A stretch of DNA of 64,000 nt from an uncultured Bdellovibrionales bacterium (GCA_964612065.1 CAZTCD010000006.1:172-64171), one strand, 5' to 3'. Positions 24,947 to 38,654 are shown, counted from the stretch's first letter. A program made the numbers and translations. Notes: generated from the letters alone by a model not told the origin.

Positions 24947-25708
24947 TCAGCCGAGAATTTCCCTGGAGCGACGGAAAATGGAGTCGAACATGGGCTCTGT
25001 CAGGCGGCCCGTAAAAGTGTTCTGCTGGCTCGGATGATAACTCATCAGGAGGGTGCGCCCGCTGGAGAGAAGCAACTCGGCTCCGTGACCGAACTTCGGT
25101 TTCTTCTGTTTTTCCTCGAGCAGTGGCCAGAGGGAATTCAGCGCGATGCCTCCGAGCACGAGGTAAATTTTCACCTGATCCATCAGAGCAAGTTCCTCGC
25201 GCAGATACGGCTCACATTTCTTGAGTTCGGCGGGCAGTGGTTTGTTATCAGGGGGCGCGCAGTGAGCGCTGGCGCTGATCCAGGCACTCTGAAGGTCCAG
25301 CCCATCTTTGGCGTGCACGGAGCCTGGCTGGTTGGCGAATCCTGCTTTATGGAGGGCGCGGTAGAGCCAATCGCCCGAGCGATCGCCCGTGAACATTCTC
25401 CCCGTGCGGTTTGCCCCGTGGGCAGCCGGGGCGAGGCCCAGGAGAAAAAGGCGGGCCTTCGGATCACCAAAGCTCGGCACGGGTTTGCCCCAGTAGGTTT
25501 CATGAGCAAAAGAGGCGCGTTTTTCTTTCGCCACTTTCTGGCAATGGCGGCGCAAGCGAGGGCAGAGCTCGCAACTTTCGATACGGCGCTGCAGGGCCAG
25601 GAGTTTTTGGGGGGAACTCATCCCAGCAGCCATACCACGGATCTGCTCAGGTTTCTTGGGTTCATGCGCCGCATTGTTCGAGGGCTTCCCAAGCGGAGAA
25701 GGCTGCAT
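24947..25708 (-). CDS. uracil-DNA glycosylase superfamily protein (family-4/5-like, UdgB-type motif)
   Basis: GLAPAAHGANRTGRMFTGD (motif A, GLAPA type), a CxxC near the N-terminus, and a C-terminal HPS motif. Confidence 0.6.
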   Translation of the reverse strand: MQPSPLGKPSNNAAHEPKKPEQIRGMAAGMSSPQKLLALQRRIESCELCPRLRRHCQKVAKEKRASFAHETYWGKPVPSFGDPKARLFLLGLAPAAHGANRTGRMFTGDRSGDWLYRALHKAGFANQPGSVHAKDGLDLQSAWISASAHCAPPDNKPLPAELKKCEPYLREELALMDQVKIYLVLGGIALNSLWPLLEEKQKKPKFGHGAELLLSSGRTLLMSYHPSQQNTFTGRLTEPMFDSIFRRSREILG

Positions 25709-25748
25709 TATCGTTAATCTCTAACGATTTTTCGTGAGGAGGGGCTCC

Positions 25749-27215
25749 ATGAAAAGAGCGCAGGAAATCATTTGCGATAACTTCATCGCAGGCGCTTGGG
25801 TGAAGGGCGAAGCTGGCTCGGCCGAGCAGATTTCTCCGATCGATGGGCATAAGCTCGGCTCCGTTTCTCTGCCTTCCGCCGCTCAGGTGCAGGCGGCGAT
25901 CGTTTCGGCCTCGGAGGCACAGAAAGCCTGGGGAGCACTCCCTCCCAAAGAACGCGCCAAGGTGCTCTTCGATTTCCGCTCGATTCTACTCCGCGAGGCC
26001 GATGCCATTTCTTCCCTGAAAGGCGCGGAAGCCGGAAAAACTTTCGATGAGGCCAAAGCCGGGCTCATGAAAGGGATCGAGGTGCTCGAGTTCGCGCTGG
26101 CGATCCAGAATCTTGATCTTGGTGGCAAGGTGGAGGTGAGCAAGGGCGTATGGTGCGAATACCGCCGGGAGCCCCTCGGAGTGGTGGCGAATATCACCCC
26201 CTTCAACTTCCCCGCGATGGTGCCCATGTGGACCATTCCCATCGCGCTGGCCCTGGGCAACGCCTATGTGTGGAAGCCTTCCGACAAAACCCCTCTCACT
26301 GCCAGACTGATCGCCGATGCTCTCACGGAAGCCGGCCTGCCCAAGGGAGTGCTCACCGTGCTTCATGGAGGGGCGGATACGGTGAATGCCATCATCGACC
26401 ATCCGCTGGTAAAGGCGGTGGGCTTCGTGGGCAGCACCAAGGTGGCGAAGCTCGTTTACCAGCGCGGCACCCAGCAAGGGAAACGGGTGCTGGCGCTCGG
26501 CGGGGCCAAGAACCATATCGTGCTTCTCCCTGATGCTGCCCCCGAGTTGGCGGGCCCGGGCATTTCCGATTCCTTCACCGGCTGCGCCGGCCAGCGCTGC
26601 ATGGCCGCCTCTGTTCTTCTCGCCGTGGGCGATGTGCAGAAGCATATCGATGCGATCGTGAAGCGCGCTTCTTCCCTGGTGCTGGGAAAAACCATGGGCG
26701 CGATCATCACCAAAGAGCAGGCCGCTTTTTTGCGGGAAGCGATCGGCCGTGCGGAAAAGGCGGGCGCGAAGGTGCTGCTCGACGGCCGCAAAGCAGAGCC
26801 CCCCAAGGGAATGGAGAAGGGCAACTGGATCGGCCCCACGGTGCTCGATCTGGTGGCAGCCGGAAGCGAAGCGGCCACGAACGAGCTCTTCGGCCCCGTG
26901 CTTTCGATCATCCGCTGCAAGGATATCAGCGAGGCGATGGCCATCGAGCGAGGCTCCGATTACGGCAACGCCTGCTCGGTGTTCACGAGCTCCGGCTCTC
27001 TGGCGGAGAGAGTGGTGAGAGAGGCGAGCACGGGAATGGTGGGAGTGAACGTGGGCGTGCCCGTACCCCGGGAGCCCTTCTCTTTCGGCGGCATCAATGC
27101 CTCCAAGTTCGGCCATGGCGATATCACGGGCCACCACAGCCTGGATTTCTGGTCGAACGTGAAGAAGGTAACAGTGAAGTGGGAAGCTCAGCAGAATACC
27201 AGCTGGATGGGATAA
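25749..27215 (+). CDS. mmsA: CoA-acylating methylmalonate/malonate-semialdehyde dehydrogenase
   Basis: ALDH fold with the catalytic GCAGQRCMA (Cys), and MMSDH-typical length and motifs. Confidence 0.8.
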   Translation: MKRAQEIICDNFIAGAWVKGEAGSAEQISPIDGHKLGSVSLPSAAQVQAAIVSASEAQKAWGALPPKERAKVLFDFRSILLREADAISSLKGAEAGKTFDEAKAGLMKGIEVLEFALAIQNLDLGGKVEVSKGVWCEYRREPLGVVANITPFNFPAMVPMWTIPIALALGNAYVWKPSDKTPLTARLIADALTEAGLPKGVLTVLHGGADTVNAIIDHPLVKAVGFVGSTKVAKLVYQRGTQQGKRVLALGGAKNHIVLLPDAAPELAGPGISDSFTGCAGQRCMAASVLLAVGDVQKHIDAIVKRASSLVLGKTMGAIITKEQAAFLREAIGRAEKAGAKVLLDGRKAEPPKGMEKGNWIGPTVLDLVAAGSEAATNELFGPVLSIIRCKDISEAMAIERGSDYGNACSVFTSSGSLAERVVREASTGMVGVNVGVPVPREPFSFGGINASKFGHGDITGHHSLDFWSNVKKVTVKWEAQQNTSWMG

Positions 27216-27239
27216 CGATTTAGAACGCAGGAAGGTTTT

Positions 27240-28502
27240 ATGAAACTGGATCCGAACAAGCGCGCCAACCATGTGATTCTCGCCACGCACTCGAGCCTCA
27301 CCTATCCCGATTCCATTCCCTTGCATTGGGGAGCCAAGGATCCTCTCGAACGGGGTCCCGTGGTGGCCACCCTCACCAATCCGCGCATGAGAAACGCGAT
27401 CGGCACCCATTCCGGTTCCTATACCGTATATCGCGCGCTCTCGATCGCGATTGGCAAATACAAGCCTTCTCACCGCCCGGATTTGCACAACACCCATAGC
27501 CCAGCCAAGATCGGCCCTTATGAGCAGTGGTTTGATCCCACCAAGATCGTGAGCCTTGATCCCTGGGGCCTCGATCCCCAGGTGCACTTCAAACCGCTCT
27601 ATGAGAAGGGCTACGATATTCGCCCTACGATCGCCGTAACCCAGGCGCATCTCGAGATTCCGGAGATCCATGATGCCATCGCCAAAGGCCGCCTGAAAAA
27701 AGACGGTACCATCGTGCGAGACCGCGGCGATATCTGCGTGACCAAGGTGGCTCTCGATCCCGTTTGGTACCTGCCCGGCATCGCCACCAAGCTCAAGGTG
27801 GACGAGGGATCCCTCCGCCGCCTGCTGTTCCAGGAAACGGGCGGCATGTATCCGGAGCTGATCACCCGTCCCGATCTCAAAGTGTGGCTGCCGCCGATCG
27901 GATCCTCCACGGCCTATATCTTCGGCAACCCGGAGGATCTGGCGAAGCCCTCGGTGGAGCTCACCTGCCGAGTGCACGATGAGTGCAACGGCTCCGATGT
28001 ATTCGGTTCCGATATCTGCACCTGCCGCCCTTATCTCATGTATGGGATCGAAGACGCCGCCCGCACGGCCCAGGAAGGGGGCGTGGGCATTATCGTTTAT
28101 TACCGCAAAGAAGGCCGCGCTCTGGGTGAGGTTACGAAATTCCTCGTATACAACGCCCGCAAGCGGCAGGAAGGCGGGGATTCGGCTGAAACATACTTCA
28201 AGCGAACCGAATGCGTGGCCGGCGTGGAAGACGCGCGCTTCCAGGAGTTCATGCCCGATGTGCTGCACTTTTTAGGCATAAAAAAAATCCACAACCTGCA
28301 CTCGATGAGCAATATGAAATACGATGCCATCGTATCTGGTGGGATCGAGGTGGAAAACCGCATCTCGATACCTGATGAGCTCATCCCCACGGATGCCCAC
28401 GTGGAGATGGAGGCGAAAAAGGCCGCCGGATATTTCAATACCGAGAAGCCCAAGAGCCGCGAAGAGCTCAAGAAGGTAAAGGGGAGAAAGATCGATGAGT
28501 AG
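27240..28502 (+). CDS. GTP cyclohydrolase II-like protein with about 230-aa non-RibB N-terminal extension (URC1-like)
   Basis: CRVHDECNGSDVFGSDICTCRPY reproduces the RibA zinc site C-x10-C-x-C. The N-terminus lacks DHBP-synthase motifs. Confidence 0.65.
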   Translation: MKLDPNKRANHVILATHSSLTYPDSIPLHWGAKDPLERGPVVATLTNPRMRNAIGTHSGSYTVYRALSIAIGKYKPSHRPDLHNTHSPAKIGPYEQWFDPTKIVSLDPWGLDPQVHFKPLYEKGYDIRPTIAVTQAHLEIPEIHDAIAKGRLKKDGTIVRDRGDICVTKVALDPVWYLPGIATKLKVDEGSLRRLLFQETGGMYPELITRPDLKVWLPPIGSSTAYIFGNPEDLAKPSVELTCRVHDECNGSDVFGSDICTCRPYLMYGIEDAARTAQEGGVGIIVYYRKEGRALGEVTKFLVYNARKRQEGGDSAETYFKRTECVAGVEDARFQEFMPDVLHFLGIKKIHNLHSMSNMKYDAIVSGGIEVENRISIPDELIPTDAHVEMEAKKAAGYFNTEKPKSREELKKVKGRKIDE

Positions 28503-29757
28503 CCCCAAAGGGAATGTGGAAGTGGCGCTCACCGTGCCGCAGGTGGAATATCTTCTTTCTCCCCGCGCCATCCGCGAGCAAGCCAAAGCGATCTTCGATC
28601 GCTGCCAGGGCGCGCCTGATAGCGAAGTAAAGGGCCCGCGAAAAGGCCTCTTCGTTTACCATCCCGAGAAGCTCGAACCCACGGTGCAGTACGTGCTTGC
28701 CGTGATCCGCGAAAAGTACCCTGATCTGAATATCCCTTTTCATTCCCGCTGGAGTCATTTCCAGGTGGGGGGCGTGGATCGATTGAAGGAGCTGCAGGAA
28801 AAGCTCAAAGGCCAGGATCCCTTCGAGGTTGCCCGCTCCAAGATCGATCTTGTGATCCCGAGTGTGCTCCTGGATGCGGGAGCCGGCGCCGCCTGGAAAT
28901 ACCGCGATGGCGGCCAGATGTTATTTCGCTCTGAGGGCCTGGCAGTTGCCTCCTTCCGCCTTTTCATGGCCGGTTGCATGAGCGATGATCGCCGTTCCCT
29001 GCGCACGGACGCCAAGGGGCTTCAGCATATGCCCATGGGCGATCTCATGGATCACTTCCAGGCTTCCGACCGCAATCCCCTGGCCGGCCTAGAGGGCCGC
29101 TATCTACTGTTGAAAAATCTGGCCTCCGCCCTGAAGAATACCGAGGTTTTTCCGGCCGAACGCCCGGGCTCGATCTTCGATTGCTTGCGCAAGCGCCATG
29201 GTACCAGCGTGCCGGCTTTAGGTATCCTGAAGGCCGTGCTGGAGGGCCTCGGCCCGATCTGGCCGGGCCGCCTTGTTTGCAAGGGAATCAACCTCGGAGA
29301 CGTTTGGCGGCATTCTACCCTGAATCCTCTCGATCTCGCGAAATCCCTGGTGCCCTTCCACAAGCTTTCCCAGTGGCTCACCTATTCTCTCATCGAGCCG
29401 ATCCAGGAAGCGGGGGTGCCGGTGACCGGAGTGGAAGAGCTCACGGGCTTGGCCGAGTACCGCAATGGCGGCCTGATTCTCGATTCTGGTCTGATTTCCC
29501 TCAAGGATCCCAGCGATCTGCAGCGCGAATGGAAACCCGATAGCGATCTCATCATCGAGTGGAGGGCTCTCACCATTCATCTGCTCGATCTGATCGGCGC
29601 GGAAGTGCAGAAGGCTCTCGGAAAAAGCCCGGCGGAATTTCCGCTCGCCAAAGTTCTCGAGGGCGGCACCTGGTGGGCAGGGCGCAAGATCGCCCAGGAA
29701 AAAAGGCCCGATGGCGGCCCTCCTTTCAAAATCATCAGCGACGGGACGGTATTCTAA
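28495..29757 (+). CDS. DUF1688-like protein (URC4-like)
   Basis: 420 aa and translationally coupled to both neighbours. Assigned from size and context rather than a strong motif. Confidence 0.4.
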   Translation: MSSPKGNVEVALTVPQVEYLLSPRAIREQAKAIFDRCQGAPDSEVKGPRKGLFVYHPEKLEPTVQYVLAVIREKYPDLNIPFHSRWSHFQVGGVDRLKELQEKLKGQDPFEVARSKIDLVIPSVLLDAGAGAAWKYRDGGQMLFRSEGLAVASFRLFMAGCMSDDRRSLRTDAKGLQHMPMGDLMDHFQASDRNPLAGLEGRYLLLKNLASALKNTEVFPAERPGSIFDCLRKRHGTSVPALGILKAVLEGLGPIWPGRLVCKGINLGDVWRHSTLNPLDLAKSLVPFHKLSQWLTYSLIEPIQEAGVPVTGVEELTGLAEYRNGGLILDSGLISLKDPSDLQREWKPDSDLIIEWRALTIHLLDLIGAEVQKALGKSPAEFPLAKVLEGGTWWAGRKIAQEKRPDGGPPFKIISDGTVF

Positions 29758-30392
29758 TGAGCTCCGGAAAAATCACGATCATCGATCATCCCCTTCTGCG
29801 CCACAAGCTCGGCTATCTGCGGGACAAGAACACCCCGAGCGCCGGCTTCCGCGATCTGGTGAAGGAGATCTCGCGCTCCTTGGCCTACGAGGCCATGCGG
29901 GATTGGAAGGAAGTGAGCCGGGTGCGCATCGAAACCCCGATGGCGCAGGCGGAAGTGGAGCGCATCCAGAATCCACCCGTGATTGTAAGCGTGATGCGGG
30001 CTGGGAACGGGATGCTGGACCCCGTGCTTTCCATGATCCCTTTTGCGAGCGCGGGTTTCATCGGCATCTACCGCGACAAATTCATCCACGATACGGTGGA
30101 GTATTATTTCAAGATGCCCGCTGATACCAAGGGCCGTCTCGCCATCCTTTGTGATCCGCTCATAGCCACTGCTGATACCATGCTGGCCGCCATCGATCGT
30201 CTCAAGAGCTATGAAGTGAAGAGGATCAAGGTTCTGTGCATTCTGATCTCCCGGTTCGCGGTGCAGAGGATCCACCATTTCCATCCGGATGTGGAGATCC
30301 TCGCTCTGAACGTGGAAGAGGAAGTGAACGATCAGGGCTACCTCGTGCCCGGTCTGGGGGATGCTGGTGACCGGCTTTATCAGACCAAGTAG
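29757..30392 (+). CDS. upp: uracil phosphoribosyltransferase
   Basis: IIDHPL...YLRD N-terminus and the PRPP motif ILCDPLIATADT. The start overlaps the previous stop (TAATG). Confidence 0.85.
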   Translation: MSSGKITIIDHPLLRHKLGYLRDKNTPSAGFRDLVKEISRSLAYEAMRDWKEVSRVRIETPMAQAEVERIQNPPVIVSVMRAGNGMLDPVLSMIPFASAGFIGIYRDKFIHDTVEYYFKMPADTKGRLAILCDPLIATADTMLAAIDRLKSYEVKRIKVLCILISRFAVQRIHHFHPDVEILALNVEEEVNDQGYLVPGLGDAGDRLYQTK

Positions 30393-30404
30393 AACGAAAG
30401 GGAG

Positions 30405-31040
30405 GTGGGAGAGATGAGCAGCCGTCCTTTCGTGCTGGGTGTGGCTGGTGGATCCGGCTCAGGAAAAACGTTCTTCGCCAGGGCGCTCCGCCAGGCTTTG
30501 GGTGCCGAGCTTTGCGAGATTATCTACCAGGACAATTTTTACATCGATCAGAGCGCCAGATTCGATGGAGACGGCGGTTCCGTAAACTTCGATCATCCCG
30601 ACAGCATCGACTTTCCCATGCTGGCGTCTTGCCTGGCGCGGCTGAAAGAGGGAAATCCCTGTGAGATCCCCGTTTACGATTTTGTCACCCATACCCGGGC
30701 TCCCGAAACCTTGCGGGTGGAGCCGCGATCCATCCTGATCGTGGATGGCATCCTGATCTTTCACTCACCCGAGGTGCGGGCGGTTTTCGATGAATTGGTG
30801 TTTTTCGATACTCCTGAAGAGATCCGCTTTCAGAGGCGCATGGAGCGCGACGTGAAAGAGCGCGGGAGGAAGCCCGAGGGAGTGAAAAACCAGTTTCTCC
30901 ACCAGGTGAAGCCCATGCACGATCTGTTCGTGGAGCCCTCCAAGGCGCATGCCACGAAGGTAGTCACCGATCGCGGCGAGTTTTCCGCCGTGCTGAAGGA
31001 CTATGTGCAGAAGCTTGGCGGCTCCGGCGGGAACGGCTAG
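30405..31040 (+). CDS. udk: uridine kinase
   Basis: VLGVAGGSGSGKTFFA P-loop and Udk-family length. An alternative ATG lies at 30414. Confidence 0.85.
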   Translation: MGEMSSRPFVLGVAGGSGSGKTFFARALRQALGAELCEIIYQDNFYIDQSARFDGDGGSVNFDHPDSIDFPMLASCLARLKEGNPCEIPVYDFVTHTRAPETLRVEPRSILIVDGILIFHSPEVRAVFDELVFFDTPEEIRFQRRMERDVKERGRKPEGVKNQFLHQVKPMHDLFVEPSKAHATKVVTDRGEFSAVLKDYVQKLGGSGGNG

Positions 31041-31588
31041 TTACACTCCAGCACGAGAGGCGTATTGATCAGGAAGCGGCCGATCAGATTGCCTTCCGCA
31101 TTGAAGTATTCATAAAGGCCGGGCGTGCCGAACTTATTGCCTTTATCGAGCTCGATGGATCGGGCCGAGGCCACTGCAAGGAGGTTCATGGAAGCGGGAG
31201 CTTCGCCCGAGCTTTCGCGGATCAGCAGGAATACGATGCCGAGCTTCGCCATTCCCATAGGATCGTTTGAGGGAACGAGCTCGCTTTCCATCACCTGATT
31301 GGTGCACTTCATGCGGGGGCTGAAGATTTCTCCCGGGGTGGCTTTATCGCTGAGGGAGTTGCAGGCCCGCCACTTCGCTGCAAGGGCAGGAATGTCTTCG
31401 AGGGATCCGGTATGCGTGGCTAAAAATGGAGCGCGATAGCCGTTCCGGAGGATGTACTGCTCTTTGTAGTGAATAAAAGTTTCGCTCACGATCGTTTTGC
31501 CGTCGGGAGCTATTTCGGTAGTTTTGCAGGTGGCGGTGTCGGCGGCCAAGGCCTGAAGTGAGAGGATGAGGGAGAGAAGGAGCTGCAT
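31037..31588 (-). CDS. hypothetical secreted protein
   Basis: Signal peptide MQLLLSLILSLQALAA and no recognisable domain. Confidence 0.35.
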   Translation of the reverse strand: MQLLLSLILSLQALAADTATCKTTEIAPDGKTIVSETFIHYKEQYILRNGYRAPFLATHTGSLEDIPALAAKWRACNSLSDKATPGEIFSPRMKCTNQVMESELVPSNDPMGMAKLGIVFLLIRESSGEAPASMNLLAVASARSIELDKGNKFGTPGLYEYFNAEGNLIGRFLINTPLVLECN

Positions 31589-33103: not shown

Positions 33104-34516
33104 ATGCCTTCCAGAATCCTTTTCTTCATTGCTTTGCTCACGGCCCTGCTCACCTTCGCGGGTTGCGCCAGCGGTTTGCGGGAAACCCGGAGGGAGCCCC
33201 TACGCCGTTCCGAACGAACCGTGGTGCTCTTCCTCGTGGACGGTTTTTCCGTGCAGGCCCTGCAATCGGCCTTGAATCGCGGCCTGATGCCGAACCTCCG
33301 CCGGCATTTTCTCCGGGGAAAGAAAACTTTCTCGCTGGGCCAGGCCGCCTTTCCCACGCAAACCTACCCCAATCTCGCCAGCATCCTCACCACGAGCCCG
33401 ATCGGTGAGCAGCCCGTGGTGGCTAATCACGTGGTGCTGCCAAACGGCAAGCTCGCCGATTACGAGAACGCGAAGGAGCACGACGCTCTCCGTGCCTTGG
33501 TGGAGCCCCTGAGCGTTTTTGCCCGCCTGGAAGCCGAAGGCCGTGAGAGCGCCAGTTTTTCTTATGTGCTCGGGAAGAGCGCTTCCCACCATATGCGAGT
33601 GGGAATCAACGAGGGCCTCGAATACGAAAGGCACGACTATCGGGGCCTCGACGGGCGCCTGCTCGCGGAAATGGGGGATCTGCTGCAATCCCGCGTTTCC
33701 CGTGAGTGGCCGGATTTTATCTATGTGCACCTGGTGGGCGTGGACGCTCTGGCTCATCGGTTCGGCCCGCTCTCTCCAGAATCTCTCGATTACCTCCGCT
33801 GGCTGGACCGGCAGTTGGCTCCGGTATTCTCCCGGCTCCGAAAGGGAGAGAGGGGCCGCAAGGTGGTATCGCTCCTCACCTCCGACCATGGAATGGAGCA
33901 AACCCGCCGTTTTGTGAGCCTGCGGAAGAAAATGATAGGTGCTGATCTCGATCTGGTGGTTACGAACGAAAGCCGTTTCCTGGGCCTTTATCTCACCGAC
34001 CGTAAGAAGGCCGATCGATTGGGCGAAGCCCTGAAATTGGCGAGAGACACTTCCGGCGTGGAGCTCACCGCCTGGAGGCGCGCTGGCGTGCTTGAGGTGG
34101 AAGGGCGGGGAAAGCTATTCCGCTTTGCGCTGGGGCCGGCTGCCTGCGGATTGCCTTTTTCTCTCTCGCTCGAAGGCGGGCCTTTTCGATGTGCCTCTTC
34201 CTTTGATGACGGGCAGGGTACGTATCCCTTTCTCGTTTCGCAGCTGGCCCGTTACTTCGGTGCCGCCGGCAGTGCCGATGCACTCGTGATCGCGAAGCCT
34301 GGCGTTTCTTTCAGCAGAGGAGCCGCAGGAAATCACGGTGGCCCTACGGCGGCCGAAAGCCTGGTGCCCGTACTGATGAGAAACGCCTCCAGCACCGTGG
34401 CCGGTCCGGTGCCTACCTCGGAGCTGTTGAAAGTTCTGGGCCAGCGTCAGGCGTTCCGGCCCACGATCGAAAACATGAAGAGAAATCCCACCGATCGGCA
34501 GGCCAGGGCGCAGTAG
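33104..34516 (+). CDS. lipoprotein of the nucleotide pyrophosphatase/phosphodiesterase (alkaline-phosphatase superfamily) family
   Basis: Lipobox LLTFAGCAS. VVLFLVDGFS and FPTQTYPNLASILTT are the ENPP metal-site motifs. Confidence 0.6.
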   Translation: MPSRILFFIALLTALLTFAGCASGLRETRREPLRRSERTVVLFLVDGFSVQALQSALNRGLMPNLRRHFLRGKKTFSLGQAAFPTQTYPNLASILTTSPIGEQPVVANHVVLPNGKLADYENAKEHDALRALVEPLSVFARLEAEGRESASFSYVLGKSASHHMRVGINEGLEYERHDYRGLDGRLLAEMGDLLQSRVSREWPDFIYVHLVGVDALAHRFGPLSPESLDYLRWLDRQLAPVFSRLRKGERGRKVVSLLTSDHGMEQTRRFVSLRKKMIGADLDLVVTNESRFLGLYLTDRKKADRLGEALKLARDTSGVELTAWRRAGVLEVEGRGKLFRFALGPAACGLPFSLSLEGGPFRCASSFDDGQGTYPFLVSQLARYFGAAGSADALVIAKPGVSFSRGAAGNHGGPTAAESLVPVLMRNASSTVAGPVPTSELLKVLGQRQAFRPTIENMKRNPTDRQARAQ

Positions 34517-34939: not shown

Positions 34940-35737
34940 GTGAGTGCCTCAATGGAAATCCGCGAGTTCTACGATACACTCTTTGCCTGGCTTTCCGCCT
35001 GCTTGTCCAAGGAGGAGCAGGGATTCATTCTCGGAATCAATGGCCCTCAGGGCTGCGGAAAAACCACGCTCACCAAAGCACTTTGCGAAAGGTTCGCTGA
35101 AAGTGGCAAAAGAGCCCTTTCCATTTCCATCGATGATTTTTACCTGACCAGGGCGGAACAGCTGAAGCTGGCCCAGGATCATGCGCAGAATCCCTATCTG
35201 CAGCAGCGCGGATACCCCGGCACGCATGATGTCGAGCTGGGGGCGCGCACCCTTCGGTCGCTGAAGCATGGAGGTATGAAAGTAAGCGTACCTCGTTACG
35301 ATAAGTCCCTGCATGCCGGGCAGGGCGATCGCCTGCCGGAGAGCGAGTGGACACAAATAGACGGTTCAGTGGATGTGATTCTCTTGGAAGGCTGGATGCT
35401 GGGGTTCAGCCCCGTTGCGGAAGAGCAGTTGCCCGGCGGCCATTTCACCGATGTGAATCGCCTGCTCCTGCCCTACCGGAGCTGGCACCGGCAATTGGAC
35501 GGCTTTCTGCAGCTCGCGCCTGAAGACTATCGCTTCGTGCTCGATTGGCGAGTGGAGGCCGAGCAAAAAATGCGAGCTCAGGGGAAGCCCGGAATGAGCG
35601 ATTCGGAGATTCGCGCCTATGTGGAAAAATTTCTTCCGGCTTATGAAACTTATCTGCCACAGCTGGAGAAAAATCCGCCCTTGATCCGCAACAGGCGTCG
35701 GATCGTGATCGGGCGGAATCGCCTGCCGGTGGGCTAG
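34940..35737 (+). CDS. P-loop kinase of the D-glycerate-3-kinase (GLYK)/uridine-kinase-like fold
   Basis: ILGINGPQGCGKTTL P-loop and a DVILLEGW Walker-B-like motif. Confidence 0.4.
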   Translation: MSASMEIREFYDTLFAWLSACLSKEEQGFILGINGPQGCGKTTLTKALCERFAESGKRALSISIDDFYLTRAEQLKLAQDHAQNPYLQQRGYPGTHDVELGARTLRSLKHGGMKVSVPRYDKSLHAGQGDRLPESEWTQIDGSVDVILLEGWMLGFSPVAEEQLPGGHFTDVNRLLLPYRSWHRQLDGFLQLAPEDYRFVLDWRVEAEQKMRAQGKPGMSDSEIRAYVEKFLPAYETYLPQLEKNPPLIRNRRRIVIGRNRLPVG

Positions 35738-36441
35738 AACTTCGCCGTAAGAGCCGTGGTGAAAACAGTATCCGCTTCCTTGGCCGTGGCCACCGGAGGC
35801 TGGTTGTTGTAGCGGAGCAAGAGGGCCGATTTCACCGAGAAAACGGAGTTCATAGCCGCGCTCAGGGAGAGCTCGGAGTTCAACAGCCAGGCTCGGGTTT
35901 CGGTAAAGTTCGGGATGTATTCGATCCAGAGCTTGGAGGAAACGGTTTCATTGAAATACTTCTCCGCTTCCGTATACAGACGGGCCTTATGGAAGCTTTC
36001 GTTCGTGCCTTTGGTGGTATGCTCGCTGGTGAAGCGATAACCAAGTTCCGCGAACCAGATAAAGTCTTTCTCGGTTTTATAAAAGAAGTGCTTGGCGCCC
36101 ACGTCAGTGTTGTAGCGCTGCAGGATGCCTGCGAACTTATCCCCCTCCACCGATTGCTGGAGGAATACGCTGAGCTTTTCCGAGAGTTCCCGCTCATAGC
36201 GGAGGGCGAGGATCCAGCTCTCTGCGCTCTGCACGCCCTGGCTGGTGGCATATAGCCAGTTGCCGGAGAAGATATAGTTGTTCTTGTCCTGCGTAAGAAT
36301 CGATTTGTTTTTGACCGAGTACGACCGGGTTTGGGTGTTACCGTTGGTCACCACGAGGCCCGCTTCGCTCTCATTTTTAAGCTCGGCGGCCTGAGCGGAG
36401 AAAACTGCCAGGAACAGGGGGAGAATCAGGAGTCTTTTCAT
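35734..36441 (-). CDS. DUF481-like outer-membrane beta-barrel protein
   Basis: Signal peptide, alternating beta-strand pattern and a C-terminal aromatic residue (F). Confidence 0.5.
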   Translation of the reverse strand: MKRLLILPLFLAVFSAQAAELKNESEAGLVVTNGNTQTRSYSVKNKSILTQDKNNYIFSGNWLYATSQGVQSAESWILALRYERELSEKLSVFLQQSVEGDKFAGILQRYNTDVGAKHFFYKTEKDFIWFAELGYRFTSEHTTKGTNESFHKARLYTEAEKYFNETVSSKLWIEYIPNFTETRAWLLNSELSLSAAMNSVFSVKSALLLRYNNQPPVATAKEADTVFTTALTAKF

Positions 36442-36737
36442 TTTTTGGCCACCGTTTCTTCTTTCAGAACCATTTTCGCAAACAGGAACACGATCACGGC
36501 CACGATCAGGAAATCAATCAGGGAGCCGATCACTTTGCCGTAGAGGATGCCACCAGCGCTGAGCTTGCGGATGTCTTCCACGTTGGCAGCCCTGAGTGCC
36601 GGCTGGAACAGGAGCGGCATCAAAAGATCGTTCACCACGGAAGAAACCAACTCGTTCATCTTGCCGCCGATGATCACCGCGATCGCCAGCCCGATCACTC
36701 CATAGTTCTTCAGAAACGCTACAAACTCTTTCAGCAT
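36438..36737 (-). CDS. mscL: large-conductance mechanosensitive channel
   Basis: MLKEFVAFLKNYGVIGLAIAVIIGGKMNELVSSVVNDLLMPLL is the MscL TM1 signature. It is the true 3' part of a 701-aa artefactual antisense ORF in the track. Confidence 0.8.
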   Translation of the reverse strand: MLKEFVAFLKNYGVIGLAIAVIIGGKMNELVSSVVNDLLMPLLFQPALRAANVEDIRKLSAGGILYGKVIGSLIDFLIVAVIVFLFAKMVLKEETVAKK

Positions 36738-36827
36738 GAGATCCCCTAGTCGGATTTGAAATACGATCCCGGAGTACCATATTGCGCAACTGGTCATGCA
36801 AGGGCTTTTGTTATAGAAAAGGCATCC

Positions 36828-38654
36828 ATGGCCGACAATCTCCTTCAATTGCTGCGGGGCGCGAAGTCTTTCGGGGCCCGCTCTCTTTTCCAGGACGCCA
36901 CGTTCTCCGTGAACGAAGGCGAGCATGTGGGCGTGATCGGCCCCAACGGGGCCGGCAAGAGCACGATGTTTCATCTTCTCACCGGCCGCGAAGAGCTCGA
37001 CTCCGGAGAGATCATACGCTCGCGATCCTTGCGCCTGGGCTACCTCAGCCAGCACGATTCCTGGGAGAAAGACGAAACCGGAAATTCCTTTCTGGAGCGG
37101 GTTTCCACTCTCCCTGTTTGGGAGGTGAAGAGCCTTGGCCGCCAGCTTCAGCTCAATGAAGAGCTGCTGAGCAAGCCGGTGATCTCCCTGAGCGGCGGCT
37201 ATCGCATGAGGATCAAGCTGCTCGGGCTTCTCGGCCAGGCTCCGAACCTCATGCTCCTCGACGAGCCCACCAACTATCTCGATCTTGAGACCACCCTTTT
37301 GCTCGAGCGATTTCTCCAGGGCTATTCCGGAGCCTTCCTGCTGATCTCGCACGACCGCGAGTTCCTCCGCCGCACCACCGATCATATTCTCGAGATCGAA
37401 GGCGGGGAGATGACCAAGTTCAACGGAAATATCGACGATTATTTCGAGCAGAAAGATCTCCTGCGCTCCCAGCTCGAGGCCAGCGCCGCCAGCCAGCAGA
37501 AGAAGCGGGCTGAGATCCTCGATTTCGTGGCACGCTTCGGCGCCAAGGCCACCAAAGCGAAGCAGGCGCAGTCGCGATTGAAGCAGCTTTCCAAGATGGA
37601 GTCGATCGAGGTGAAGCCTCTGCCTGTGAGCTCCGTGATCCGCATTCCGCCGCCCGCGAAAACCGGCAAATTGGCCGTGGCGGTGAACACCGCCTCCTTC
37701 GGCTATGGCGAGCGCACCGTGATCAAAAACGTGAACCTGCAGATCCTGCGCGGGGATCACGTGGCGGTGGTGGGATTGAACGGCGCCGGCAAATCCACCC
37801 TGCTCAAAGGGATATCGGGCGCTCTTCCTCCTCAGAAAGGAAGCTTCGAGCTGGGGCTCGGCGTGGAAATGGCTTTCTTCGCCCAGCACGTGATCGAGGC
37901 GCTGGTGCCTGAGCAAACGGTTTATCAATCTCTCGAAGCGGCCGCGCACCGTGATCTTAAGCCACAGGAGATCCTGGATCTCGCAGGCTCCCTGCTCTTC
38001 TCCGGGGATGACGTGCGGAAACCCATTTCCGTACTGAGCGGAGGCGAGAAATCGCGGGTGGCTCTCGGGCGGGTTCTGCTGAAGAAAGCTCCCTGCCTCG
38101 TGCTCGACGAACCCACCAACCACCTCGATTTCGCCACGGTGGAGGCTCTCACCAATGCGCTTCGGGGGTATGAAGGCACCGTAATCGTGGTGAGCCACGA
38201 CCGGGGTTTCATCAAGCGGGTGGGCACCAAGATCCTCGAAGTGGCCAAGGGAGAGGTGCGTCTCTATCCCGGCACTTATGAGGAGTATGTGTGGAGCGTG
38301 CAGCAGGAGCTGGCCGGAGAAGAGCCTCCGGTTAGGTCCGCGCAGTCGTCTCCAGCGGCCTCCGAAAAAGCGCCCAAACCCGCCAACTGGAAAGACGAGA
38401 TCAAGCGTTTGCAGGGAGAGCTGCGGATCGCGGAAAAACGCTTCCAGGAGTGTGAAAAGGAGATGGCCCGCCTTCTGGCGGAAAACGAGGAGCTCAATGG
38501 CCAGCTGGTATCCAGCTCGAGCCCCTGCATGGATGCCGTGCATATCATGAGCGAAAACGGCAAAAGGATCGCGGAGCTGGAAAGCCTCTGGCTGGAGCTG
38601 GCGGAAGAGAAGGAAGAGAAAGCCAAGGCCGTGGCGGCCATGCTGGCAACGTAG
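36828..38654 (+). CDS. ABC-F family ATPase (two ABC domains and a C-terminal coiled coil)
   Basis: Two Walker A motifs (GPNGAGKST, GLNGAGKST), two LSGG signatures, and an inter-domain linker. Confidence 0.85.
   Translation: MADNLLQLLRGAKSFGARSLFQDATFSVNEGEHVGVIGPNGAGKSTMFHLLTGREELDSGEIIRSRSLRLGYLSQHDSWEKDETGNSFLERVSTLPVWEVKSLGRQLQLNEELLSKPVISLSGGYRMRIKLLGLLGQAPNLMLLDEPTNYLDLETTLLLERFLQGYSGAFLLISHDREFLRRTTDHILEIEGGEMTKFNGNIDDYFEQKDLLRSQLEASAASQQKKRAEILDFVARFGAKATKAKQAQSRLKQLSKMESIEVKPLPVSSVIRIPPPAKTGKLAVAVNTASFGYGERTVIKNVNLQILRGDHVAVVGLNGAGKSTLLKGISGALPPQKGSFELGLGVEMAFFAQHVIEALVPEQTVYQSLEAAAHRDLKPQEILDLAGSLLFSGDDVRKPISVLSGGEKSRVALGRVLLKKAPCLVLDEPTNHLDFATVEALTNALRGYEGTVIVVSHDRGFIKRVGTKILEVAKGEVRLYPGTYEEYVWSVQQELAGEEPPVRSAQSSPAASEKAPKPANWKDEIKRLQGELRIAEKRFQECEKEMARLLAENEELNGQLVSSSSPCMDAVHIMSENGKRIAELESLWLELAEEKEEKAKAVAAMLAT

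Follow-up and report, generated by a model that had tools for sequence, protein, structure and literature searches.

Five adjacent genes on the plus strand of an uncultured Bdellovibrionota member (positions 25749-31040) raise the question of whether this bacterium encodes a route for breaking down uracil and uridine, and what the products of that route would be. The genes lie within a 64-kb stretch of DNA, all of which was analyzed (hereafter the window). Every gene product has a strong family match. Judging from sequence, we read the locus as a bacterial URC (uracil catabolism) operon, and assign a probability of roughly 85% to the whole of the route proposed below.

Organization of the locus

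The gene order is aldehyde dehydrogenase (aldh), URC1, URC4, upp, and udk. Family profiles match all five products and bear out the identities given in the first-pass annotation (mmsA, a URC1-like gene, DUF1688, upp, and udk). The same annotation described the genes as packed and co-directional. The coordinates hold, as do the junctions of +24 bp (aldh/URC1), -8 bp (URC1/URC4), and -1 bp (URC4/upp, at TAATG) read from the sequence, but the last gap, given there as 12 bp, depends on the start of udk: it is 12 bp from the GTG at 30405 and 21 bp from the ATG at 30414. The functions had also been called "fused into one operon"; the locus does appear to be one operon, but of separate genes and not of fused proteins. 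A 760-aa open reading frame on the opposite strand (25986-28268) was rejected as a shadow ORF, as no family supports it and its GC content by codon position follows the wrong pattern. At the other end, udk and a convergent gene (31037-31588) overlap at their stop codons.

Genes related to URC1 are encoded in at least 593 species genomes. Of the 50 related loci whose flanks were long enough to compare, 33, mostly from Bdellovibrionota, have the exact order aldh-URC1-URC4-upp-udk, so the recurrence of this synteny, which had been put forward as a check, is found. All five genes are colinear within 6.5 kb, with tight junctions, in 35 loci, and the five-gene loci include those of Bdellovibrio bacteriovorus Bd16, Bdellovibrio sp. 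qaytius, and Bacteriovorax sp. DB6_IX. The genes flanking the five-gene block are not conserved among related loci. Because the order is kept in 33 of 50 loci while the flanking genes vary, the arrangement is not due to chance. More broadly, in about 70 of 80 related loci, as in ours, the URC4 gene adjoins the genes for URC1 and uracil phosphoribosyltransferase (UPRTase), and a URC1-URC4-upp core is also present in Acidimicrobiales, Rhodospirillaceae, Verrucomicrobiales, and Cellvibrionaceae.

Co-directional genes, short or overlapping junctions, and an order kept across genomes together make the locus operon-like, as first proposed. We infer co-transcription from gene packing and synteny only, because the locus has no promoter or terminator signals above chance and a search for a conserved upstream motif found none.

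Predicted entry of pyrimidines and ring opening

Two salvage-type enzymes would supply the pathway. The uracil phosphoribosyltransferase gene upp (29757-30392), in the role of yeast URC6, is assigned by NF001097 (232.1 bits, cut-off 114), TIGR01091 (214.5 bits, cut-off 208.35), and Pfam UPRTase. The Pfam match begins at residue 75 of a long open reading frame, which fits a start at the ATG at 29757, overlapping the URC4 stop codon. The uridine kinase gene udk (30414-31040, alternative start GTG at 30405), in the role of yeast URK1, matches NF004018 (213.8 bits, cut-off 180) and Pfam PRK (122 bits), but falls below the cut-off of the older TIGR00235 model (179.8 versus 220.3 bits). A GGGAGG Shine-Dalgarno sequence lies 9 nt before the ATG at 30414 and is better spaced for this start than for the GTG. 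Based on these family assignments, Udk would phosphorylate uridine using ATP and Upp would join uracil to PRPP, both yielding UMP. We predict that UMP is then converted to UTP by housekeeping UMP kinase and nucleoside-diphosphate kinase encoded outside the operon.

The second gene (27240-28502) encodes a GTP cyclohydrolase II paralogue of the URC1/UrcA type. Pfam identifies a GTP_CH_N domain (PF12471) at residues 10-199 (265.7 bits) and a GTP_cyclohydro2 domain (PF00925) at residues 225-375 (54.7 bits). The protein scores 722 bits against NF005536 (cut-off 403), a model whose description reads "GTP cyclohydrolase II". It matches PDB entries 7EJ3 and 7EEV over residues 5-419 (E 1.5e-167); along the entire protein, identity is 61-62%. 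These structures, released in 2021 and 2022, bear the title "UTP cyclohydrolase", contrary to the initial statement that the bacterial enzymology of the URC1/URC4 step is unknown. We take them to be the bacterial UrcA of Zhang et al. (ACS Catal 2021). The two-domain architecture is common to these proteins and ours, as are the zinc-binding cysteines. The zinc motif C-x10-C-x-C of RibA, noted at first pass, is indeed kept as C249/C260/C262, and 47 homologues as well as the PDB enzyme have all three cysteines unchanged. The URC1-like protein is thus almost certainly the same enzyme as bacterial UrcA; the structures come from a different organism, and the activity of our protein is predicted from the likeness.

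In uracil breakdown, UrcA is reported to hydrolyze UTP by a two-step reaction (PMC9499338), and PMC12507026 refers to a bacterial URC pathway, citing Zhang et al. 2021. The 61-62% identity to enzymes titled UTP cyclohydrolase argues that the substrate is UTP and not UMP, the compound at which ring opening had first been placed. Our protein, a zinc enzyme of GTP cyclohydrolase II descent, would open the uracil ring of UTP by the two-step hydrolysis shown for the 61%-identical bacterial enzyme. Ring chemistry suggests that the C4-C5-C6 fragment leaves as malonate semialdehyde while urea stays on the ribose phosphate. If the reaction resembles that of GTP cyclohydrolase II, pyrophosphate would also be lost, giving 5-phosphoribosylurea.

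Predicted fates of the ring fragments

The release of urea is attributed to the product of the third gene (28495-29757). It matches DUF1688 (PF07958) at 456.8 bits, with residues 19-420 covering all 420 positions of the profile, which confirms the first assignment, and close homologues carry the NCBI name "URC4/urg3 family protein". We propose that URC4 is a Qng1-like N-glycosidase that frees urea from (5-phospho)ribosylurea, on the basis of its predicted fold, of conserved residues, and of the yeast pathway, in which the step from ribosylurea to urea is assigned to URC4. On the same grounds, URC4 would cut the ribose-urea bond to yield urea and ribose-5-phosphate. The fold of the predicted URC4 structure is common to Qng1 (DUF2419; PDB 7UGK and 7U07), a queuosine-5'-phosphate N-glycosidase that acts on a nucleoside 5'-monophosphate. 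Its leaving group is a deazapurine, whereas that of URC4 would be urea.

The two proteins belong to different Pfam families. The Qng1 family, PF10343, gave no Pfam match to URC4 even at E 10, and an HMM search of URC4 against the Qng1 PDB sequences also gave no match. A profile-profile comparison (hhalign) returned an E value of 1.4e-4 with a probability of 52%, which is marginal at the sequence level. Identity is about 15%, and URC4 is about 80-100 residues longer. In the profile alignment, as distinct from a coordinate superposition, URC4 K290 and Y322 align with Qng1 K199 and Y232, which belong to the HhH-motif Lys and Asp-Tyr of that family. Glu321 stands in place of the Qng1 nucleophile Asp, a residue present in 3 of 150 representatives, and the general-acid Asn72 of Qng1 is replaced by Ala or Gly. 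The C-terminal Phe of URC4 is near-invariant; Qng1 ends in an aromatic residue that places its carboxylate in the active site. URC4 is probably a distant homologue of Qng1 and not a Q_salvage member.

Both Asn72 and the nucleophile Asp are replaced in URC4, so its chemistry need not match that of Qng1. The route could therefore be of the URC type while URC4 does other work, acting on free ribosylurea after a phosphatase, acting on a tri- or diphosphate intermediate, or assisting ring opening. In a literature-based model of the yeast pathway, URC4 acts on ribosylurea and no phosphate is mentioned (PMC7530994), and the URC4 structure is a prediction and not a solved one. We regard such a role as unlikely, but as the most serious competitor to glycosidic release of urea from a phosphorylated intermediate.

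The first gene (25749-27215), with GGAGG 6 nt upstream of its ATG, would deal with the three-carbon fragment. Its product scores 412 bits against Pfam Aldedh. The best NCBIfam model is TIGR01722, CoA-acylating methylmalonate-semialdehyde dehydrogenase, at 430.4 bits, just below the cut-off of 448.5; the next model reaches 262 bits. Among PDB sequences, the top ten (302-356 bits) all belong to (methyl)malonate-semialdehyde dehydrogenases, and the next aldehyde dehydrogenase class scores 196 bits. Arg301-Cys302 and Asn169 are kept and invariant. Position 268 is Ala, so the general-base Glu268 is absent. At position 124, the carboxylate-binding Arg is replaced by Lys in 48 of 48 Bdellovibrionota operon copies. 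The roles given to residues 124, 169, 268, 301, and 302 follow the literature on the B. subtilis enzyme. The MmsA/IolA (ALDH6) family provides the best structural and profile matches and shares Arg301-Cys302, Asn169, and the missing Glu268, but the operon enzyme differs in its Lys124 and in falling just below the TIGR01722 cut-off. In other pathways for pyrimidines, beta-alanine, and inositol, the ALDH6 family takes malonate semialdehyde to acetyl-CoA.

The dehydrogenase makes sense as a malonate semialdehyde sink, as had been suggested: with CoA and NAD+, it would convert malonate semialdehyde to acetyl-CoA, CO2, and NADH. This step is predicted from the family assignment and from two lineages in which such genes have become linked to URC clusters independently. 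It is improbable that the enzyme instead oxidizes another aldehyde, or forms malonate without CoA, and is merely co-located. The score below the trusted cut-off and the uniform Lys124 would fit such a role, as would the recorded end product in yeast, 3-hydroxypropionate rather than acetyl-CoA (PMC3869809). However, the closest structures are exclusively CoA-acylating enzymes, the invariant residues and the missing Glu268 are as in that family, and dozens of genomes have this gene at the head of the operon. Furthermore, Cellvibrionaceae show an independent linkage of URC genes to a canonical Arg124 malonate-semialdehyde dehydrogenase gene, in another position and orientation.

Overall, the route most likely turns uracil or uridine into urea, ribose-5-phosphate, and acetyl-CoA. 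The pathway was initially called complete, and the genes do extend down to urea, but no urease, urea carboxylase/allophanate hydrolase, urea amidolyase, or uracil permease was identified in the 64-kb window. Given the lack of urea-degrading genes nearby, we speculate that the cluster may serve recovery of carbon and energy from pyrimidines as much as nitrogen supply.

Comparison with known systems

RibA, the GTP cyclohydrolase II of riboflavin synthesis, is homologous to the URC1-like protein in its C-terminal catalytic domain and C-x10-C-x-C zinc site. Our protein differs by an additional N-terminal domain of 200 residues, and its gene sits in a context of pyrimidine metabolism rather than riboflavin. 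As initially described, this extension has no DHBP-synthase match; it is the GTP_CH_N domain. The protein also fails all RibA/RibBA models (39-57 bits versus cut-offs of 148-764; for example, 56.9 versus 148 for NF001591, 44.8 versus 205.85 for TIGR00505, and 48.7 versus 569 for NF006803), and the RibA models in particular (45-57 versus 148-206) uphold the earlier claim that it is neither RibA nor RibBA. The idea that the cluster joins a riboflavin-type GTP cyclohydrolase II gene to pyrimidine salvage genes, with no catabolic role, draws on the "GTP cyclohydrolase II" label that the closest homologues, like NF005536, carry at source and on the classical salvage functions of Upp and Udk, but it is effectively refuted by these family scores and the titles of the nearest solved structures, E. 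coli RibA being only 17-18% identical, the URC1-like gene invariably adjoining URC4, and the window containing no rib genes.

The URC reading is instead matched by fungal systems. S. pombe has a uracil-induced cluster of urg1 (GTP cyclohydrolase II family), urg2 (UPRTase), and urg3 (DUF1688) (PMC2174524). The core trio of a GTP cyclohydrolase II paralogue with GTP_CH_N, a DUF1688 protein, and a UPRTase is common to our locus, to S. pombe, and to Lachancea kluyveri (URC1, URC4, URC6, URK1, URC8, and URC3,5). In yeast also, a uridine kinase feeds the pathway, the products are urea and a C3 unit, and the genes are clustered. The Bdellovibrionota genes differ in what appears to be a single bacterial operon with a bacterial-type Upp (NF001097), and genes for urea amidolyase (URC3,5), a regulator (URC2), and a permease are missing from their surroundings. 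In yeast, 3-hydroxypropionate is the end product on record, whereas here the C3 product is predicted to reach acetyl-CoA via the CoA-acylating dehydrogenase.

The first-pass annotation regarded the pathway as characterized only in fungi. This does not stand: according to PMC3869809, with reference to Andersen et al., conservation of URC1, URC4, and their gene organization in both bacteria and fungi was reported in 2008. Because the pathway, the bacterial gene cluster, and the key bacterial enzyme have already been described, the operon is a new example of a known pathway and not a discovery.

A probable five-gene operon for uracil catabolism

As the first-pass annotation had proposed, the region 25749-31040 carries five co-directional genes. 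They lie on the plus strand, and each has a strong family match. The first (25749-27215, +) encodes a dehydrogenase of the CoA-acylating (methyl)malonate-semialdehyde type (Aldedh, 412 bits). Its top NCBIfam model is TIGR01722 (CoA-acylating methylmalonate-semialdehyde dehydrogenase), which it matches with 430.4 bits, under the cut-off of 448.5; the runner-up model scores 262 bits. Next come a URC1-type cyclohydrolase (27240-28502, +), with GTP_CH_N at residues 10-199 and GTP_cyclohydro2 at residues 225-375, and URC4 (28495-29757, +), for which the earlier assignment to DUF1688 was borne out by an end-to-end match of 457 bits. Upp (29757-30392, +) and Udk (30405 or 30414-31040, +) were identified by family matches. 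In gene order the junctions are +24, -8, -1, and then +12 bp with a udk start at 30405 or +21 bp with one at ATG 30414; the latter is better placed behind a GGGAGG ribosome-binding site. The five genes are presumably co-transcribed.

Two alternative gene calls were rejected. The longer upp reading from GTG 29559 (277 aa) was discarded, since its 66 N-terminal residues overlap URC4 and fall outside the Upp profile match. Shadow ORFs are common in GC-rich DNA, and we regard a 760-aa ORF on the strand opposite the dehydrogenase and cyclohydrolase genes (25986-28268, -) as one of these; no family model supports it, and its GC content peaks at codon position 1 instead of position 3.

The cyclohydrolase retains the zinc motif noted previously (C249-x10-C260-x-C262). 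It matches NF005536 with 722 bits (cut-off 403) and falls far under the cut-offs of all RibA/RibBA models; these family scores rule out a riboflavin reading of the gene and agree with the original view that the protein is neither RibA nor RibBA. Over residues 5-419 it is 61-62% identical to PDB entries 7EJ3 and 7EEV (E 1.5e-167), both titled "UTP cyclohydrolase." Its structure model is moderate (pLDDT 67) and was used only for retrieving PDB entry titles. Literature searches for the codes 7EJ3 and 7EEV returned nothing, and searches for phosphoribosylurea, Urc1p, Urc4p, and UrcB returned nothing relevant. PMC9499338 describes two-step hydrolysis of UTP by UrcA in uracil breakdown, and PMC12507026 places the URC pathway among bacterial pyrimidine degradation strategies. 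In Schizosaccharomyces pombe, urg1 (GCHII family), urg2 (UPRTase), and urg3 (DUF1688) are clustered and uracil induced (PMC2174524); Andersen et al. 2008 is cited in PMC3869809. Identification of the locus with the URC pathway was thus correct, but three accompanying statements are out of date, namely characterisation of the pathway in fungi alone, its unknown enzymology in bacteria, and UMP as the substrate for ring opening; according to the UrcA work and the structure titles, that substrate is UTP.

Homologues of the 27240-28502 product are still publicly named "GTP cyclohydrolase II," as is the NCBIfam equivalog model NF005536, and this label would likely propagate a wrong function. Close homologues of the third gene product already carry the NCBI name "URC4/urg3 family protein." The annotation offered here corrects the misleading name, as these "GTP cyclohydrolase II" homologues would be UTP cyclohydrolases of pyrimidine catabolism.

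Conservation and surroundings of the module

In a scan covering one genome per species, relatives of the cyclohydrolase turned up in at least 593 genomes. The five proteins were placed by tblastn in the best 80 of these at least 593 loci, and all ORFs were separately clustered. Among these 80 loci only the five module genes recur; flanking genes do not. The exact order aldh-URC1-URC4-upp-udk recurs on one strand in 33 of the 50 loci that have enough flanking DNA. In 35 of the best 80 loci all five genes lie colinear and tightly joined within 6.5 kb, and five-gene loci in this set are mostly from Bdellovibrionota, the predatory phylum to which Bdellovibrio belongs. The arrangement is not due to chance, and throughout Bdellovibrionota the whole URC module is conserved as a putative operon of five genes. 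The nearest relatives of the window's proteins are from Bdellovibrionota MAGs, which places the window in an uncultured member of this phylum. Among cultured bacteria the module is carried by Bdellovibrio bacteriovorus Bd16 (locus L036); further carriers are Bdellovibrio sp. qaytius (L029), three Bdellovibrio sp. HCB strains (L026, L039, and L040), and Bacteriovorax sp. DB6_IX (L041). A URC1-URC4-upp core also occurs in Acidimicrobiales, Rhodospirillaceae, Verrucomicrobiales, and Cellvibrionaceae.

Six Cellvibrionaceae loci (L060, L063, L065, L068, L072, and L073) have the URC core with a divergent dehydrogenase gene upstream and, directly downstream, a second, convergent upp-like gene whose product is 38-39% identical to the window's Upp. 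This cluster design differs from that of Bdellovibrionota. Three clusters of the Bdellovibrionota type (four or five genes, 68-71% identity) are on contigs labelled otherwise, as Pseudomonadota, Flavobacteriaceae, and Candidatus Sericytochromatia MAGs (L046, L054, and L057); the labels may reflect mis-binning or horizontal transfer.

The flanking genes of the window, including a UDG-like gene, a PilZ protein, and hypothetical proteins, were left out of the module because they are unconserved beside it in other genomes. The UDG-like gene (24947-25708, -) belongs to the uracil-DNA glycosylase superfamily (family-4-like; Pfam UDG, 88 bits) and is divergent from the operon, with start codons 40 bp apart as the ORF is called. 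Its true start may be an internal Met, as the domain begins at residue 78. It was not found beside the operon by tblastn and context analysis of the best 80 of at least 593 loci. Located 2-4 kb downstream of the operon are genes for a type I nucleotide pyrophosphatase/phosphodiesterase (33104-34516, +) and a second, weak PRK/uridine-kinase-like P-loop protein (34940-35737, +), with a possible link to nucleotide scavenging. Farther along, a 701-aa ORF (36438-38543, -) has an MscL domain confined to its last 100 residues and overlaps a gene for a clear ABC-F ATPase (36756-38654, +; ABC_tran, 168 bits), so the minus-strand ORF is mostly shadow and the real mscL is short.

A promoter and terminator scan found sites no more numerous than in shuffled controls, an Rfam search of the window gave no matches, and no k-mer was common to more than 6 of 45 upstream regions. 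Between the start of the UDG-like gene and the Shine-Dalgarno sequence ahead of the dehydrogenase gene there is a perfect 7-bp inverted repeat (ATCGTTA-N5-TAACGAT, 25710-25728). It is a candidate operator; a repeat of this length can occur by chance, and no motif is common to the other loci.

Predicted kinship of URC4 with Qng1

The searchable literature and the PDB yielded neither a solved structure nor a biochemical assay of DUF1688 (PF07958). By sequence, URC4 matched nothing meaningful in the PDB, either as a single sequence or as a 48-sequence profile, and against Pfam at E 10 it matched DUF1688 only, not the Qng1 family profile. From 48 homologues AlphaFold2 produced a confident model (pLDDT 92.3, pTM 0.90). 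With this model Foldseek retrieved only chains of Qng1, the queuosine-5'-phosphate N-glycosidase (E 2e-9 to 2e-7, target-normalised TM 0.71-0.77). An initial hhalign comparison of URC4 with just two aligned Qng1 sequences fell short of significance (E 0.15). Profile-profile alignment of 30 diverse URC4 and 30 Qng1 sequences gave E 1.4e-4 over 284 columns, a value reached only with deeper profiles on both sides. For one Qng1-family protein (P0355), the precomputed Pfam matches include PF07958 as well as PF10343 (Q_salvage), which independently hints at a relationship between these families at the sequence level.

Qng1 cuts the N-glycosidic bond of queuosine-5'-monophosphate using the Lys of its HhH motif (K199) and an Asp (D231, followed by Y232), and its invariant C-terminal Tyr places a carboxylate in the active site (PMC9881137). 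Activity was lost in a Qng1 tagged at the C terminus. In the profile-profile alignment, URC4 LLDAGAG..W (D127) is paired with Qng1 VLDAVNFCFW (D69), PFHKLSQW (K290) with RFYKRAQI (K199), and LAEYRN (E321, Y322) with FADYK (D231, Y232). The URC4 residues D127, K290, E321, and Y322 are invariant in 69 of 69 homologues from several phyla, all of which end in TVF. Across 150 URC4 representatives (41-56% identity) a C-terminal Phe is present in nearly all, and the E321 position holds Glu in 141 sequences and Asp in 3; Qng1 homologues have a C-terminal Tyr (120/120). The general-acid Asn72 of Qng1 is not kept in URC4.

From the modelled fold we infer that URC4 may be the N-glycosidase of the pathway. 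The substrate of Qng1 suggests, by analogy, that it would act on 5-phosphoribosylurea, releasing urea and ribose-5-phosphate. No paper tying DUF1688/URC4 to Qng1/DUF2419 was found in the searchable literature, and the fold kinship may already be recorded elsewhere. The Qng1-like predicted fold is the most useful new point of this analysis; together with the named candidate catalytic residues, it makes URC4, the pathway's one uncharacterised step, directly testable.

Fate of the C3 product and the proposed pathway

The ten best PDB sequence matches of the dehydrogenase are all (methyl)malonate-semialdehyde dehydrogenases (302-356 bits), followed at 196 bits by the next ALDH class. Arg301-Cys302 and Asn169 do not vary, and position 268 lacks Glu, as in the CoA-acylating family. 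Position 124 is Lys in 48 of 48 Bdellovibrionota operon copies (among loci L002-L058), whereas canonical malonate-semialdehyde dehydrogenase has Arg there. Arg124 is found in the URC-linked dehydrogenases of Cellvibrionaceae (L060, L063, L065, L067, L068, L072, and L073), whose genes have another position and orientation. Lys124 may be the hallmark of a subfamily adapted to malonate semialdehyde, and the five-gene form with this dehydrogenase and Udk is typical of Bdellovibrionota. Because a dehydrogenase is linked to URC genes independently in two lineages and in two arrangements, the data support malonate semialdehyde as the bacterial C3 product and the dehydrogenase as its sink.

In the proposed pathway, uridine would be converted to UMP via Udk, and uracil and PRPP to UMP via Upp. 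UMP would be converted to UTP by housekeeping kinases. UrcA would open the ring of UTP to give malonate semialdehyde and a ribosylurea nucleotide, from which URC4 would free urea and ribose-5-phosphate; the dehydrogenase step would yield acetyl-CoA, CO2, and NADH. The UrcA step, shown for a relative, is carried over to the window protein by analogy, and the putative roles of Udk, Upp, and the dehydrogenase follow from family assignment. For URC4, both the reaction and the phosphorylation state of the substrate are presumed, as is the physiological role. Nitrogen supply is as plausible a role as provision of carbon and energy. The whole 64-kb window contains no gene for a urease, a urea amidolyase, or a uracil permease, and no rib genes.

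In a bolder reading, to which we give a probability of about 40%, URC4 is a distant relative of Qng1 and HhH DNA glycosylases and the missing N-glycosidase of the URC pathway, converting 5-phosphoribosylurea to urea and ribose-5-phosphate via Glu321, Lys290, and the carboxylate of the invariant C-terminal Phe. In Bdellovibrionota it would be coupled to the Lys124-subclass dehydrogenase and Udk, so that surplus pyrimidines would be burnt to supply carbon and energy in the form of acetyl-CoA and ribose-5-phosphate, leaving urea as a waste product. The locus itself is a correct, well-supported annotation of an already known pathway. Linkage of the dehydrogenase suggests a route to acetyl-CoA, unlike the yeast route, which leads to 3-hydroxypropionate.
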